This document shows, piece after piece, positions 11,785-17,145 of a stretch of DNA of 50,048 nt (positions within the stretch are counted from its first letter, which is position 1; the number at the start of each line of letters is the position of its first letter). Position numbers and translations under genes: made by a program. The notes beneath the pieces are model-generated. The model was given only the letters and a program-made list of their open reading frames with translations, searched no databases and was not told the DNA's origin. The stretch lies in sequence record MH051918; one strand, 5' to 3'. The stretch comes from Escherichia phage vB_EcoS_IME347.

Positions 11785-11797
11785 ATTGGAGGTAGTA

Positions 11798-13111
11798 ATG
11801 AAAATTGTTAAGCAAGATGGGTACAACGAGATCTTTAACGGCGGTGCTGAAGGCGCTCCAAAACCTTTCTACGTAAGCAATCCGCTTGCTTACGGGTTGG
11901 GTTATCTTTACGAGAATAACGGTCTTGCTCGTCGAATCATCGACGTTGTACCGGAAGAAATGGTAGCGCCCGGATTCAAGGTTTCTGGTGTGCAGGATGA
12001 AGCGGCCTTTCGCTCCTCGTGGGATGAACTGGAAATTGAAGGTCATATCGTTGATGCGCTTGCGTGGCGTCGCCTGTATGGTGGTTCAGCTATCGTGGCG
12101 ATCATCAATGACGGTCGGAAGCTAACCTCTCCGGCAAAACCCGAGGGTGTGCTGGAAGGCGTCCGAGTGTACGATCGGGATCAGGTTCAAGTGGAGAAGA
12201 AAGAAACCAACGCGCGAAACATTCGCTACGGCGAGCCTGTTTTGTACAAGATTTCCCCCGGCGACGGGCTGACCCCTTATCTTGTTCACCACACCCGAAT
12301 CAAGATTCTGGACGGCGAACGCCTTCCCCTTCAGCAGCGAAAGATGAATGACGGATGGGGCGCTTCAGTCCTGAATAAGTCTCTGATTGAAGCGATTTAC
12401 GATTACGAGTATTGCGAGGAGCTTGCGACTCAATTACTACGCCGTAAGCAGCAAGCAGTTTGGAAGGTTAAAGGGTTGGCGGAAATGTGTGACGACGACG
12501 AAGCGCAATTCGCTGCACGAATCCGATTGGCTCAGGTGGATGATAATTCCGGTGTCGGTAAGGCGGTTGGTATCGATGCGGAAACGGAGGAATACGAGAT
12601 CCTAAACTCCGACGTTAACGGTGTGTCTGAATTCCTTCAGGGCAAATTCGATCGCATCGTGTCGCTATCCGGGATTCACGAAATCATCCTGAAGAATAAG
12701 AACGTCGGCGGCGTAAGCGCAAGCCAGAATACGGCGCTTGAGACTTTCTATAAGTTGATTGACCGCCAGCGCGCGGAGCATTACCTCCCGATTCTGGAAT
12801 TTCTGCTCCCGTACATGCTGCACGAAAATGAATGGTCTGTGGAGTTCGAACCGCTCTCCATGCCTTCGGAAAAGGAAGCGTCGGAAACAACGAAGAATCA
12901 CGTTGAGGCTATTCGCGGTGCTCTGGAAGATCAGATGATTGACTTAGAAGAGGCTCGCGATACATTGCAATCCGTTGCGCCAATGTTTAAGCTGAAAGAC
13001 CTGAACCACAAAGAGCTTGAGAGCCGTATGCAGGAACAACAGCAGCAAGAGCAGGAACCGGGCGTTAGCGAAGTAATCAGCGAATCGGAGGGAGAAGAGG
13101 GTGAAGATTAA
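11798..13111 (+). CDS. portal protein, 437 aa
   Basis: Track ORF 11786 (TTG) trimmed to ATG 11798 after GGAGG. Follows terL, has the right size, and has an acidic C-terminus. The family looks DUF1073-like. Confidence 0.85.
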   Translation: MKIVKQDGYNEIFNGGAEGAPKPFYVSNPLAYGLGYLYENNGLARRIIDVVPEEMVAPGFKVSGVQDEAAFRSSWDELEIEGHIVDALAWRRLYGGSAIVAIINDGRKLTSPAKPEGVLEGVRVYDRDQVQVEKKETNARNIRYGEPVLYKISPGDGLTPYLVHHTRIKILDGERLPLQQRKMNDGWGASVLNKSLIEAIYDYEYCEELATQLLRRKQQAVWKVKGLAEMCDDDEAQFAARIRLAQVDDNSGVGKAVGIDAETEEYEILNSDVNGVSEFLQGKFDRIVSLSGIHEIILKNKNVGGVSASQNTALETFYKLIDRQRAEHYLPILEFLLPYMLHENEWSVEFEPLSMPSEKEASETTKNHVEAIRGALEDQMIDLEEARDTLQSVAPMFKLKDLNHKELESRMQEQQQQEQEPGVSEVISESEGEEGED

Positions 13112-13865
13112 CGGGATCGCTAAGAAATGGCGCTTTCCTGAATCCAGCGAGCGGCAACTGAGCCGCTCAATGGAGCAATTTACGGGCGCGATCGTCGCCC
13201 GTATGCAGGAGAGTTTTAAGCCGATGAAGTGGGATGCTGACGAAGAGCAGATCGATCAGACTGAACGTGACTTGCTGGATTATGCTGAAGAGCTAATCGC
13301 CGCTCTGTTCGTATCTCTCCCGGCGTTGGCGTACACCATCTACAAGTTCAACTCAAAGCAGTTTTTGAAGGTGGCGCGTAGTGCTGGAGGGGGAAAGAAC
13401 GAGTCCGTAATGTTGCTTGCTCTGATTGGTGCAAACGGCTCCGAGCCGTGGTATTCGCCTCAGTACAAACTGTGGGAGTCTCAGGCCAAAACATCGATCA
13501 GGAAGTTCGCTGCGAATGCGATTACTGACTTCACGGACAGGCTTCGCAATGCTGCGGCTAACGGGTACGATCGCGAACGTGCTTACGAGGAAACCAATCA
13601 GAGATATAAGGTTTATTCATCTTGGGCGCGTAACCGTGCATCAGGGATCGTGACCACTTGGAACAGCAGAATGATGCGCCAACGTCTGAAGGATGCTCAA
13701 GTTACGCATTACTTTTGGCGTGGAATGATGGATTTACGCGAACGCGAGAAACATGTAAGATGGGAGGGAAAACGCATCCCTATCGACAGTAATCACATAT
13801 TCCCCGGCGAGGAATACAACTGCCGTTGTTGGGCTGTCCCTGACTTCTCAAAAATTGGAGATTAA
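13101..13865 (+). CDS. head morphogenesis protein (Mu F / SPP1 gp7-like), 254 aa
   Basis: Track ORF with a GTG start overlapping the portal stop. Sits after the portal gene. C-terminal FPGEEYNCRCWAVP is typical of the Mu-F family. Confidence 0.75.
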   Translation: MKINGIAKKWRFPESSERQLSRSMEQFTGAIVARMQESFKPMKWDADEEQIDQTERDLLDYAEELIAALFVSLPALAYTIYKFNSKQFLKVARSAGGGKNESVMLLALIGANGSEPWYSPQYKLWESQAKTSIRKFAANAITDFTDRLRNAAANGYDRERAYEETNQRYKVYSSWARNRASGIVTTWNSRMMRQRLKDAQVTHYFWRGMMDLREREKHVRWEGKRIPIDSNHIFPGEEYNCRCWAVPDFSKIGD

Positions 13866-13868
13866 ATA

Positions 13869-14975
13869 ATGAAGGCAAAGCAAAGGTTCGACAGTGTAAA
13901 AATCAAGGCGCACTTTGATGAACATGGTTTCTTGGTTGACCGTCCGATCGTGGCGCGAATCGGCGCTCAAACGTACCGCACCCCGCATGGGGATCGAGTT
14001 GAGTTCCGCCCGGCCTCGGAGGTTTTCAAGGCTGAATCTCTGGAGACTTATGCGGGCAAGCCCGTAACTATCGGTCACGTAACCGTAAATCCAGACAATG
14101 CGGAAAGCGTGGTTGTGGGATCTTGCGCTGGCTCTGGAATCCCGTCCGGGATCGGGGTTGAGGTTCCAATGTCAATCTACAGCCAGCGAGCGATCGACAA
14201 AGCGAAGTCGAAGGCGGCGGCGGAAATCTCCGTGGGCTACACGTCCGAAGATATCGAAAAGCCGGGTTGGGGTTCCAATGAAACTGGCGAATACATCTTC
14301 GAAGAGGATATGAAGCAGGACGAAGCGCCCCCGGCTGGATGGGTTCACTTTGACGCCCTGCAAACGAACATCAAAGTTAATCACGTCGCGCTTGTGTTTA
14401 AAGGCCGTGCGGGAATCGCTAAATTGAACCTTGATAGCGAGCAGGAATTCCCGTATGATAACGACGTTGACACAAACAAAGAGGATAATGAAATGACTGT
14501 AAAAATTAAGATCGACTCCGCAGAAGTGGAAGTGACCAAGGATGTTGCCGCACACATCGAAAAGCTGAATGCTGAAATCGCAACTGTTCAGGGCAAGGCC
14601 GATGGTCTGGAAGCTGAACGCGATAACCTGAAAGAGAAGGTTGACGGCATCCCGGCGCAAATCGAAGCGGCTGTAGCTCAGGCGAAAGCTGACGCTGAAG
14701 CAATGACCGCGCTTATCGCTCTCGCCTCCGAAGCTGGCGTGAAGTGTGACGGTCTGGACGCTAAAGGAATCAAGGTAGCATTCATCAAAGAAACTACCGG
14801 GAAAGATGTTTCCACCAAATCAGACGCCTATATCGAAACAGCTTTCGACTTTGCGAAAGATTGTGATAACATGGCCTCACAGCGTCAAAGCATTAAAGGC
14901 GATGCCGCGAAAGAAAAAGAGGACGAAAAGCCGGAACTGACTCCGAACTCTCGCCTCGCTAAACTCAACAAGTAA
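13869..14975 (+). CDS. prohead scaffold/protease-like protein (DUF2213-like), 368 aa
   Basis: The N-terminus resembles the DUF2213 pattern (...ARIGAQTYRTPHGDRVEFRPASEVF...GKPVTIGHV). Ala/Glu-rich coiled-coil C-terminal half. Sits before the capsid genes. Confidence 0.6.
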   Translation: MKAKQRFDSVKIKAHFDEHGFLVDRPIVARIGAQTYRTPHGDRVEFRPASEVFKAESLETYAGKPVTIGHVTVNPDNAESVVVGSCAGSGIPSGIGVEVPMSIYSQRAIDKAKSKAAAEISVGYTSEDIEKPGWGSNETGEYIFEEDMKQDEAPPAGWVHFDALQTNIKVNHVALVFKGRAGIAKLNLDSEQEFPYDNDVDTNKEDNEMTVKIKIDSAEVEVTKDVAAHIEKLNAEIATVQGKADGLEAERDNLKEKVDGIPAQIEAAVAQAKADAEAMTALIALASEAGVKCDGLDAKGIKVAFIKETTGKDVSTKSDAYIETAFDFAKDCDNMASQRQSIKGDAAKEKEDEKPELTPNSRLAKLNK

Positions 14976-14987
14976 GGAGAAGAAATT

Positions 14988-15464
14988 ATGGCAATTGCAG
15001 CAAGCTATCAGAAAGATATGTCTATCGCCGTTCCGGGTATGGTGGCAGACACCTCCCGTTACAACATCGACGGCGCTTGCGTACTGAGCGGTGACGTTGA
15101 TATCCTCGTCGGCGTTGCGGTTCAGGTTGACAACGTTCAGGCCGTTGACGGTCACAAAGTCATGAAGCCTATGGCATCCGGCGGCAAGGCTTATGGTGTG
15201 GCGATTCGCTCCCACTTCCAGACTAAAGGCAAAGATGGTCAGATGTACTATGAAGCGGGCGGCGGCATTAACGTAATGACCTCCGGGCGCGTTTGGGTTA
15301 TCTCCAAAGATTCCACCGCTCCGGCGTTTGGTGAAACTGTCAACTTTGACGTTGACGGACAGCAGAAAGCAGACGGCGCGATCGAAACCGCATGGACTTA
15401 TGCGGGCGGCTTCACTACCTATCAGGATTTGAAGCTGGTTGAAATCCAATTGCATCAACTGTAA
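14988..15464 (+). CDS. head decoration/cement-like protein, paralog A, 158 aa
   Basis: Track ORF with an AAGGAG RBS. Shares YNIDGACV, GVAVQV, GRVWV, (A/S)PAFGE and AGGF with the next gene. Lies between the scaffold and capsid genes. Confidence 0.6.
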   Translation: MAIAASYQKDMSIAVPGMVADTSRYNIDGACVLSGDVDILVGVAVQVDNVQAVDGHKVMKPMASGGKAYGVAIRSHFQTKGKDGQMYYEAGGGINVMTSGRVWVISKDSTAPAFGETVNFDVDGQQKADGAIETAWTYAGGFTTYQDLKLVEIQLHQL

Positions 15465-15479
15465 TAAGTAGCTAATATA

Positions 15480-15507
15480 GGGATTACCTTTTGGTAGTCC
15501 CTTTTTT
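15480..15507 (+). terminator. intrinsic terminator after decoration paralog A
   Basis: GGGATTACC-tttt-GGTAGTCCC (one mismatch) followed by T6, then ATTGGAGGTA. Confidence 0.7.
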
Positions 15508-15522
15508 ATTGGAGGTAATAAA

Positions 15523-16017
15523 ATGTCTGATTATGGTAATTTGTCTTTGGGGGTTAGCTGTCCCGGCCTCCTGTCCGATACGTCGGACTATAATATCGAC
15601 GGCGCTTGTGTGGCTCGTGGGGAAATTCCTTTTGGTGTCGCTGTTCAGGTTGTCGAGATCGTGGATGGTGTCAAGGTTGTCTCCGCGCTGAGTGACGGCA
15701 AGCCGTATGGTGTGTCGATGCGATCGCAATACGAAAACTTGTCGGGCGTGGTTCAGGACGGCGAACCTGTGAGCGTTATCTCTCATGGTCGAGTTTGGGT
15801 TCGCACCTCTCTGGAGGATTCGCCCGCTTTCGGTGAGAAGTTATCCTTCGAATCTGGCGGAGAAGTATCTGAGGCCGGGGAGGCTGGCTGGCCTTTCGCT
15901 GGAGGTTTCGTTAAGTTTGGTGAGGGCTGGATTGTAGAGGTTCAGGTTTTGCAAAACCGATACTACATCCCACCTGAGCCGGAACCTGAACCAGAACAAG
16001 ACCCGGAAGAGCCGTAG
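15523..16017 (+). CDS. head decoration/cement-like protein, paralog B with acidic PE-rich tail, 164 aa
   Basis: Track ORF, paralog of 14988-15464. Its C-terminus PPEPEPEPEQDPEEP ends at TAG 16015-16017, and the same composition continues in frame to 16080. Confidence 0.65.
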   Translation: MSDYGNLSLGVSCPGLLSDTSDYNIDGACVARGEIPFGVAVQVVEIVDGVKVVSALSDGKPYGVSMRSQYENLSGVVQDGEPVSVISHGRVWVRTSLEDSPAFGEKLSFESGGEVSEAGEAGWPFAGGFVKFGEGWIVEVQVLQNRYYIPPEPEPEPEQDPEEP

Positions 16018-16080
16018 CCGGAAGATCCTGAACCGGAAGAGGGAGGCGAAACTGACCCGGAAGAAGGTTCAGAGGGTTAA
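16018..16080 (+). other. in-frame post-TAG extension (20 codons, PEDPEPEEGGETDPEEGSEG, then TAA)
   Basis: Direct translation in the frame of 15523-16017. CCGGAAGA units recur on both sides of the TAG. Confidence 0.6.
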
Positions 16081-16092
16081 CACAAAAACAGT

Positions 16093-16120
16093 TTGACGCT
16101 TTAACAAAAAGTGCTATCAT
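16093..16120 (+). promoter_or_regulatory. sigma70-like promoter TTGACG-16-TGcTATCAT (capsid gene)
   Basis: TTGACG at 16093-16098 and TATCAT at 16115-16120. The predicted +1 (~16127) lies inside the 5' arm of terminator 16121-16148. Confidence 0.55.
16100..16117 (-). promoter_or_regulatory. inverted box copy forming the spacer and TGn of the capsid promoter
   Basis: The plus strand reads TTTAACAAAAAGTGCTAT, embedded in TTGACG-16-TATCAT. Confidence 0.5.
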
Positions 16121-16148
16121 AAAGCCGTTATCACTTAACGGCTTTTTT
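16121..16148 (+). terminator. intrinsic terminator immediately upstream of the capsid gene
   Basis: AGCCGTTA-tcact-TAACGGCT followed by T6. Confidence 0.75.
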
Positions 16149-16167: not shown

Positions 16168-17145
16168 ATGACTAAGAAATATGACGAATTCGAAGCAACC
16201 GTAGTTGGCTCCCACCTGAAGATGCGCGGTGAAAAAGCCGATGCTGATACTCTCGGTATCTGGACTGCTCAGGAGCTTCACAAGCTGAAAAATCAGTCTT
16301 ACGAAAAAGACTATCCGGCAGGTTCCGCTCTGCGAGTATTCCCGGTAACTAACGATCTGTCCCCGGTTGATAAGACCTTCGAATATCAGACCTTTGATAA
16401 GGTTGGTATCGCGCAGATTATCACCGACTACACCGATGATCTTCCTCTGGTTGATGCTATGTCGTCCAGCGAGTTTGGCAAAGTTTTCCGCCTCGGTAAC
16501 GCATACCTGATTTCAATTGACGAAATCAAAGCAGGTCAAGCAACTGGCAAGTCGCTGTCTAATCGCAAGGTTAACGCCGCGCAACTGGCACACGATCAGT
16601 TAGTCAACCGCCTGGTGTTTAAAGGTTCTGTTCCTCACAAAATTGTGAGCGTGTTTAATCACCCGAACATTACCAAGATCACCTCCAAAGGCTGGACGTC
16701 AACCGCTGGTAGCGTAGTAACCAAAAACCCGGAAACCGCAGAAGAAGAACTGACGGCGGCTATTGAGTCGATCCAGACTCTGACGATGGGCGCACACCGT
16801 GCAACGCACATCCTGATCCCGCCGTCAATGCGCAAGGTTCTGACTGTTCGTATGCCTGACTCCACTGAAAGCTATCTGGATTACTTCATGAAGCAGAACG
16901 GCGGAATCACCATCGAATCAATCGCGGAACTGGAGGATATCGACGGCGCTGGCACGAAGGGTGCTCTGGTTTACGAGTACGACCCGATGAATATGTCCAT
17001 CGAAATTCCTGAAGCGTTCAACATGCTTCCTGCGCAGCCGAAAGACCTGCACTTCAAAGTGCCTTGCACCTCTAAGTGTACTGGTCTTACGATTTACCGC
17101 CCACTAACGATTGTCCTGATTACAGGACTTGCAGTAAGCGAGTAA
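16168..17145 (+). CDS. major capsid protein, 325 aa
   Basis: Track ORF. Bracketed by terminators and has its own promoter. Size and position fit, and the sequence looks DUF2184-type. Confidence 0.8.
   Translation: MTKKYDEFEATVVGSHLKMRGEKADADTLGIWTAQELHKLKNQSYEKDYPAGSALRVFPVTNDLSPVDKTFEYQTFDKVGIAQIITDYTDDLPLVDAMSSSEFGKVFRLGNAYLISIDEIKAGQATGKSLSNRKVNAAQLAHDQLVNRLVFKGSVPHKIVSVFNHPNITKITSKGWTSTAGSVVTKNPETAEEELTAAIESIQTLTMGAHRATHILIPPSMRKVLTVRMPDSTESYLDYFMKQNGGITIESIAELEDIDGAGTKGALVYEYDPMNMSIEIPEAFNMLPAQPKDLHFKVPCTSKCTGLTIYRPLTIVLITGLAVSE

Follow-up and report, generated by a model that had tools for sequence, protein, structure and literature searches.

An amber codon of single origin in the acidic tail of a T1 gp48-type cement protein gene of Escherichia phage vB_EcoS_IME347 and its relatives

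In the head of phage T1, cryo-EM has shown 80 homotrimers of the cement protein gp49 and 60 heterotrimers, each made up of one gp48 and two gp49 subunits, with the heterotrimers sitting at the quasi-threefold axes; this 1:2 gp48:gp49 composition is known for T1 only (PMC11945409). In this system, residues 2-153 of gp48 form an ordered beta-tulip on the outer capsid surface and make all of the contacts between gp48 and the shell, and residues 154-255 form a weak, flexible, outward protrusion that is not resolved (PMC11945409). Both cement paralogues are present in the solved T1-type capsids (9kmg, 9kmh, 9kzj). The gp48 protein of T1, a 255-aa 'IgG/BIG2 domain-containing decoration protein' (9kzj chain H; related to gp29 of 9kmh), has its gene flanked by those for the gp49-type paralogue and the major capsid protein, the same slot as that of the gene described here.

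Capsid proteins with C-terminally extended minor forms make up a further point of comparison, with the A1 protein of Q-beta produced by UGA read-through and the 10B form of T7 gene 10 by a -1 frameshift. For both, members of the group share the recoding site as well as the extension, and the longer protein has been demonstrated; in Q-beta it is required. The locus considered here is like them in being a capsid-surface gene with protein-like sequence past its first stop, but the likeness is superficial: unlike in Q-beta and T7, the close relatives of this gene have a sense codon at the position of the stop or have no extension, the extension appears to be under relaxed constraint, and an extended product would be hypothetical here.

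The cement gene and its product

Escherichia phage vB_EcoS_IME347 (IME347) is a T1-like siphophage from sewage; E. coli BL21(DE3), the strain used to isolate it, supports titres above 1e10 PFU/mL and a burst size of 145 (PMC6499177). In the window analysed here, by which we mean its complete genome of 50,048 bp (MH051918), the head module runs from the portal gene (11786-13111) through the genes for a Mu-F-like minor head protein (13101-13865), the protease/scaffold (13869-14975) and a gp49-type cement paralogue of 158 aa (14988..15464, plus strand; Pfam PF22758, 100 bits; PDB 9kmg 'cement protein II', 158 aa) to a gp48-type cement/decoration gene (15523..16017, plus strand) and the major capsid protein gene (16168..17145, plus strand; Pfam PF09950, 193 bits). 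The gp48-type gene is the second of two tandem cement paralogues and lies directly upstream of the major capsid gene, a T1-like order. It was delimited from the ORF list and its translation, with the TAG stop included in the span, and by exact-sequence lookup its 164-aa product is identical to YP_009800873.1 (HOT14_gp37 of vB_EcoS_IME347).

The product matches the Pfam family Phage_cement (PF22758) over residues 9-141, scoring 82.9 bits where the cutoff is 27 (E=3e-23), and also the BIG2/gp29 decoration chains of T1-type capsids in the PDB (9kzj_H, E=7.7e-58; 9kmh_ak, E=4.7e-56), with query residues 4-155 aligned to residues 3-156 of the chains, which bears out the description of the protein as decoration-like in an initial annotation of this DNA. 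Identity to T1-type gp48 proteins is about 61-63% over residues 4-147. On the combined grounds of HMM match, homology to solved structures and synteny, the 164-aa protein is identified as the orthologue of T1 gp48, and the entry HOT14_gp37, filed as a 'hypothetical protein', is the gp48-type cement protein of IME347, for which the 164-aa call would be the real main product.

The beta-tulip cement domain was assigned to residues 1-149 (15523..15969, plus strand) from alignment to T1-type chains, the T1 structure paper and an AF2 model, and is the counterpart of the ordered residues 2-153 of T1 gp48. It is followed by the translated acidic Pro/Glu tail PPEPEPEPEQDPEEP (residues 150-164; 15970..16014, plus strand), delimited by translation and PDB-chain alignment. 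In that alignment the start of the acidic tail coincides with the poly-Pro linker to the Ig domain in T1-type proteins, and a Pro-rich segment follows the beta-tulip domain at the same residue in T1 gp48 and in IME347. The AF2 model of the 164-aa product is all-beta, with strands up to residue 142 and a block pLDDT of 80-92 for residues 21-140; beyond residue 142 no secondary structure is predicted, and the pLDDT there is 59-72. T1 gp48 carries a C-terminal Big_2 domain (residues about 154-255), whereas IME347 has instead a Pro/Glu/Asp low-complexity tail that is further cut by the TAG. In the IME347 protein no match was found to Big_2 (PF02368), the Ig-like protrusion, and the chain ends 15 residues past the beta-tulip domain; relatives that bear Big_2 are 249-271 aa long. 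The whole IME347-like group, its relatives at ~88% identity included, lacks the Big_2 Ig-like domain that T1 gp48 and the SRT8-type orthologue carry.

The original stop and the origin of the amber codon

The ORF at 15523-16017 has the C-terminus ...YYIPPEPEPEPEQDPEEP, which is followed by TAG at 16015-16017, and the next 20 in-frame codons read PEDPEPEEGGETDPEEGSEG before a TAA at 16078-16080, so the in-frame TAG within an acidic, PE-rich tail and its 20-codon continuation are as the initial annotation had described them. An open frame of 20 codons is by itself unremarkable (p about 0.44); that 14 of the 20 residues behind the TAG are P, E or D has a probability of about 4e-9 under the six-frame codon frequencies of the window, which agrees with the earlier claim that composition continues unchanged across the stop beyond what chance would give. 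The repeat DNA unit that had been reported on both sides of the TAG is likewise present, with copies of CCGGAAGA at 16003 (before the stop) and at 16018, 16033 and 16057 (after it); this unit occurs eight times in the 50-kb window against 1.96 expected, a count that was reached in 0 of 100 shuffles.

The TAA at 16078..16080 (plus strand) was identified as the ancestral stop from DNA alignments with homologues, which include the Ig-domain versions of SRT8, BrunoManser and IME-JL8. These three phages are the best nucleotide matches in the INPHARED 'phages' collection (82% identity), and their orthologue is a 260-aa protein with an Ig-like C-terminal module; DNA homology between them and the window is lost within the gene and is back exactly at the TAA, which is their own stop. 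A tblastn search of the same collection matched residues 4-147 only and never the tail. Among more closely related loci, L004-L006 (short tails) and L012 and L013 (long tails) stop at a TAA aligned base-for-base with 16078-80, and L011, also long-tailed, stops two codons earlier. Compared with the short-tail proteins P0001 and P0002, the window carries 60 extra in-frame nt, the TAG among them, and the gap between stop and capsid start, which is 88 nt in P0001 and P0002, is 87 nt in the window when counted from the TAA and 150 nt when counted from the TAG. These alignments show that the gene originally ran to the TAA. The initial annotation had considered homologues that end at the TAG position with unrelated sequence downstream; the homologues were found to end at the second stop.

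Just past the TAA lies a conserved intergenic block (16093..16148, plus strand), recognised from a promoter scan and from columns that are near-invariant against relatives at 82-88% identity, and it is this block that shows where the gene slot truly ends downstream. The scan placed a promoter-like site at 16093-16120 (TTGACG-16-TATCAT with an upstream TG), and a 9-bp hairpin running into a T-run at 16122-16144 was read directly off the sequence, having not been called by the terminator scan. Taken from the TAA onwards, window positions 16081-16148 are conserved almost base-for-base even in SRT8, BrunoManser and IME-JL8, at 82% identity. This stretch looks like a conserved regulatory block ahead of the major capsid gene, and it may serve either as a terminator or as a promoter whose hairpin stabilises the 5' end.

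Alleles of the gene were drawn from a large protein collection in 90% clusters, which gave ten distinct proteins, and the DNA loci were compared alongside; they fall into four classes. The first has short PE/PD tails, with proteins of 161-169 aa that end PDA-TAA (L004-L006, about 88% locus identity to the window). Among the short-tail proteins, P0001 (167 aa, 87% identical) and P0002 (165 aa, 85% identical; MAFFT) have acidic tails that end ...PDA, and together with P0025, P0029 and P0030, all from uncultured IME347-like phages, they are 85-87% identical to the IME347 protein, have tails of 12-20 residues and a size near 164 aa, and are without the Ig domain. They have the same intergenic block after the stop as the window; unlike the window, they end ...PDA at the ancestral TAA, without an internal stop or a 60-nt remnant. 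The second class has a long, uninterrupted tail in a protein of 183 aa that ends ...PEEPEDPEPEDGGETDPEEGSEG-TAA (L012 and L013, 95-96% locus identity); both loci are without the codon at the TAG position and the codon after it, with the frame kept. The third class is represented by L011 (95.6%), in whose long tail the TAG position is occupied by GAA (Glu); it carries one extra 24-nt repeat and a TAG of its own two codons before the TAA, and it provides the sense codon that the initial annotation had suggested looking for in a homologue. This late TAG is a second, independent GAG>TAG change, since L011 reads GGT TCA TAG GGT TAA and the window GGT TCA GAG GGT TAA (L011 1026-1214, ena:ERZ27276680:k141_261187).

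The fourth class comprises the TAG alleles, namely the window, L007-L010 (identical to it in the tail region), L016 (with an E>K change behind the TAG) and L014 and L015 (with a 24-nt deletion and three substitutions, including S>I), at 97.8-99.7% locus identity, that is, differing from the window by 0.3-2.2%. The identical 164-aa product was called on five metagenome contigs, four of which were compared at the DNA level, and its variants P0026 and P0028 on three more. The same TAG is present in the seven metagenome contigs compared, which come from seven different runs or assemblies and each have their own SNPs, and which show that the allele circulates in nature. The allele is carried by runs SRR5239736, SRR5239745, ERR11525682, ERR13245686 and SRR28368733 and by assemblies ERZ28647473 and ERZ28647459.

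The twenty codons PEDPEPEEGGETDPEEGSEG behind the TAG (16018..16077, plus strand) can be described as formerly coding, since the sister alleles P0024 and P0027 translate them. The 183-aa P0024 is translated through the extension as ...PEEPEDPEPEDGGETDPEEGSEG*, and the tail of P0027 reads ...PEEP-E-PEDPEPEEG..., with GAA at the position of the window's TAG. Neighbour-joining trees of the flanks alone and of the cement domain alone both place the TAG alleles in one clade, with the second and third classes adjacent to it and the short-tail class outside. Because the sister alleles read through the position and the trees give a single TAG clade, the TAG at 16015..16017 (plus strand) is derived and has a single origin on a long-tail allele; it is a nonsense substitution, most simply GAG>TAG. 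Tail length is variable in nature, ranging over 12-42 residues in steps of 6 nt (CCNGAN) and of 24-nt repeats, and the truncated tail of 15 aa lies inside the natural short-tail range of 12-20 aa. Sequence-pattern scans gave no new PE-tail alleles: a clade-specific 31-mer had 0 matches in IMG/VR and JGI metagenomes, a 43-nt pattern across the TAG, with the TAG as NNN, had 0 matches in IMG/VR, and a conserved 40-nt intergenic block was found only in SRT8 (L017) and in one SRT8-type human-gut contig with an Ig domain (L018), with none in genome_contigs.

Constraint behind the stop and rival explanations

Between the window and L012 the extension differs by three synonymous codon changes and one conservative (E/D) change, and it therefore resembles coding sequence. 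Within the TAG clade, by comparison, five substitutions fall in the 492 nt before the TAG versus four in the 60 nt after it, together with a 24-nt deletion (Fisher p=0.0105), a substitution density ~6x as high behind the TAG as before it in the gene; this contrast comprises nine events only, in a low-complexity region whose mutation rate may be raised in any case. The changes include 16021 G>A in L016, which is an E>K charge reversal in an acidic tail, and S>I with the repeat-mediated 24-nt deletion in L014 and L015; in L014, three of the 36 aligned post-TAG nt are substituted, the background for the locus being 1.1% (p=0.007). These comparisons point towards relaxed constraint on the DNA behind the TAG. 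The post-TAG frame is open in all members of the clade, and the sole indel is in frame because it removes a 24-nt repeat unit, which is in frame by construction. The TAG itself is kept in every member, and the retention of both TAG and open frame is uninformative because divergence in the clade is 2.2% or less.

The explanation that we favour, at a probability of roughly 80%, is that the TAG is a real nonsense substitution fixed in nature, a recent, tolerated truncation of a length-variable acidic tail in the IME347-like lineage of T1-like phages. Recent truncation was one of three possibilities in the initial annotation, and it is the one that has held up, with sister alleles that translate to the same TAA, one of them with Glu at the TAG, a single origin in a clade of at least 97.8% identity, and signs of relaxed constraint behind the TAG. 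A single base change of the kind named above would have occurred on a repeat-expanded 'long-tail' allele, leaving 15 of the roughly 36 residues of its acidic tail. The tail is probably an unstructured, outward appendage that stands in place of the Ig domain of T1 gp48 and may be dispensable for capsid binding. Its truncation would be tolerable because the tail is predicted to be unstructured and to face outward, because the shell contact in T1 is made by the beta-tulip only, and because natural tails vary so widely in length; it would follow from the dispensability of the tail that the truncation is neutral or nearly so. The change, neutral and possibly mildly favourable, may then have spread among wild phages, tolerated because the truncated length falls inside the natural short-tail range. 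The 60 nt downstream would now be non-coding, a young and decaying remnant in which drift has begun, and any read-through product would be negligible, a by-product rather than a designed minor form.

A different role for the extension was envisaged in the initial annotation, which had proposed programmed read-through to a minor, longer form. In its most explicit version this is selected leaky termination, in which a near-cognate tRNA at Glu-Pro-UAG-C would add to the capsid surface a minor cement subunit of 185 aa whose acidic tail is doubled. The TAG and the open frame are indeed found in all TAG-clade genomes seen (IME347 and seven contigs), but the clade is too shallow for such retention to be read, and where stop conservation across diverged homologues is a hallmark of read-through, this TAG is confined to one clade at that depth. 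The peptide behind the TAG has the same composition as the tail, but its changes are radical ones and its substitutions dense, as described above, and sister alleles lacking any stop and distant alleles lacking the extension indicate that neither a mixture of two forms nor a long tail is required. The truncated product ends ...Glu-Glu-Pro before the UAG, and in the passage of PMC7246954 that cites Hayes, Bose and Sauer (2002), strong SsrA tagging in E. coli is reported as a consequence of Asp-Pro-stop and Glu-Pro-stop, the latter being a poor terminator, and peptide release after Pro is reported there to be slow (Pierson, 2016). Going by that passage, this is a general property of translation rather than a dedicated element, and what would be expected from it is slow release or tagging, but not necessarily read-through. 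Because DP and EP are depleted at bacterial protein C-termini (PMC7246954), the EP ending fits a secondary origin of the TAG stop. By analogy, some stalling, SsrA tagging or read-through at Glu-Pro-UAG-C is plausible. The RNA fold of 16000-16100 is not unusual (z=-0.99) and the phage has no tRNA gene, and with ~60 gp48-type subunits per T1-type head, basal read-through, assumed to be 1% or less, would give fewer than one extended copy per virion. Selected leaky termination is therefore regarded as unlikely, and the stronger form, in which Glu-Pro-UAG-C provides a low, fixed share of the 185-aa subunit on wild sup0 hosts and hence two surface forms from one gene, as a long shot; programmed read-through as such is unsupported, with neither a suppressor tRNA, nor unusual RNA structure, nor a sign of conservation of the extension once the TAG was present. 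If the leaky terminator were real, a dsDNA tailed phage would have, through stop-codon read-through, its own counterpart of T7 10A/10B or Q-beta A1.

Tolerated truncation must also be set against the possibility that the TAG is an artefact, be it a sequencing or assembly error, an amber mutant on a suppressor laboratory host or genome-wide reassignment of TAG, which we consider barely credible. It is true that IME347 is one published isolate genome and that TAG is rare as a stop here, the rarest of the three in a census of 76 ORFs (49 TAA, 18 TGA and 9 TAG), but the identical TAG in seven independently assembled contigs, from separate runs or assemblies and each with its own SNPs, rules out sequencing error. 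An amber mutation kept on suppressor laboratory hosts, the remaining possibility raised in the initial annotation, is refuted by the isolation of the phage from sewage, by its growth on BL21(DE3), which is a non-suppressor strain (PMC11054660, PMC2882348), and by the presence of the allele in environmental samples, in the same seven contigs. Reassignment of TAG, or a suppressor tRNA of the phage, is ruled out by the stop census and by a tRNA search of the 50,048-bp genome, in which ARAGORN found 0 genes; none of the other eight TAG-terminated ORFs has sequence of matching composition past its stop. Very unlikely, though less so than an artefact, is that the truncation was adaptive, an over-expanded acidic tail having been selected back to 12-20 residues for reasons of surface charge, aggregation or assembly, with a nonsense change as the quickest route. 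The 15-aa tail does fall within that range, the TAG allele is the commonest of those derived from the long tail (nine genomes or contigs versus three that are uninterrupted or have a late stop), and L011 has acquired its own GAG>TAG. Sampling is tiny and non-random, however, the stop in L011 costs two residues only, and uninterrupted 183-aa alleles persist in two samples; the sequence data fit neutral and adaptive fixation alike.

Tolerated truncation would place this locus among the ordinary, well-documented cases in which a disordered tail carries a tolerated nonsense polymorphism, and it involves no new recoding mechanism unless protein data reveal a substantial extended form. Positions 16018-16077 would be a coding remnant and not an overlooked exon. 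More broadly, the outward C-terminal module of gp48 in the T1 family appears to be disposable in evolution, occurring as an Ig domain, as a short or long acidic tail or as a truncated tail, and it changes through repeat slippage and nonsense mutation, which bears on its use as a site for display or engineering.

Other features of the head module

Between the two cement paralogues there is a terminator-like hairpin (15479-15502) with a 10-bp stem, followed by TTTTTATT. This hairpin could make the gp48-type gene less strongly expressed than its gp49-type neighbour, which would be in line with the ratio of 1:6 that follows from the T1 counts (60 gp48:360 gp49). In one of the TAG-carrying contigs, L010 (ena:ERZ28647459 scaffold_2716), comparison of contig positions 1545-1556 with window positions 14402-14650 shows that ~250 nt of the protease/scaffold gene are missing, and the gene was called as two pieces of 194 and 90 aa; the gap may reflect a true loss from the coiled-coil scaffold part or a fault of assembly. 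Further upstream, the C-terminus of the portal protein (13060-13111) is likewise strongly acidic and of low complexity, ending ...PGVSEVISESEGEEGED.
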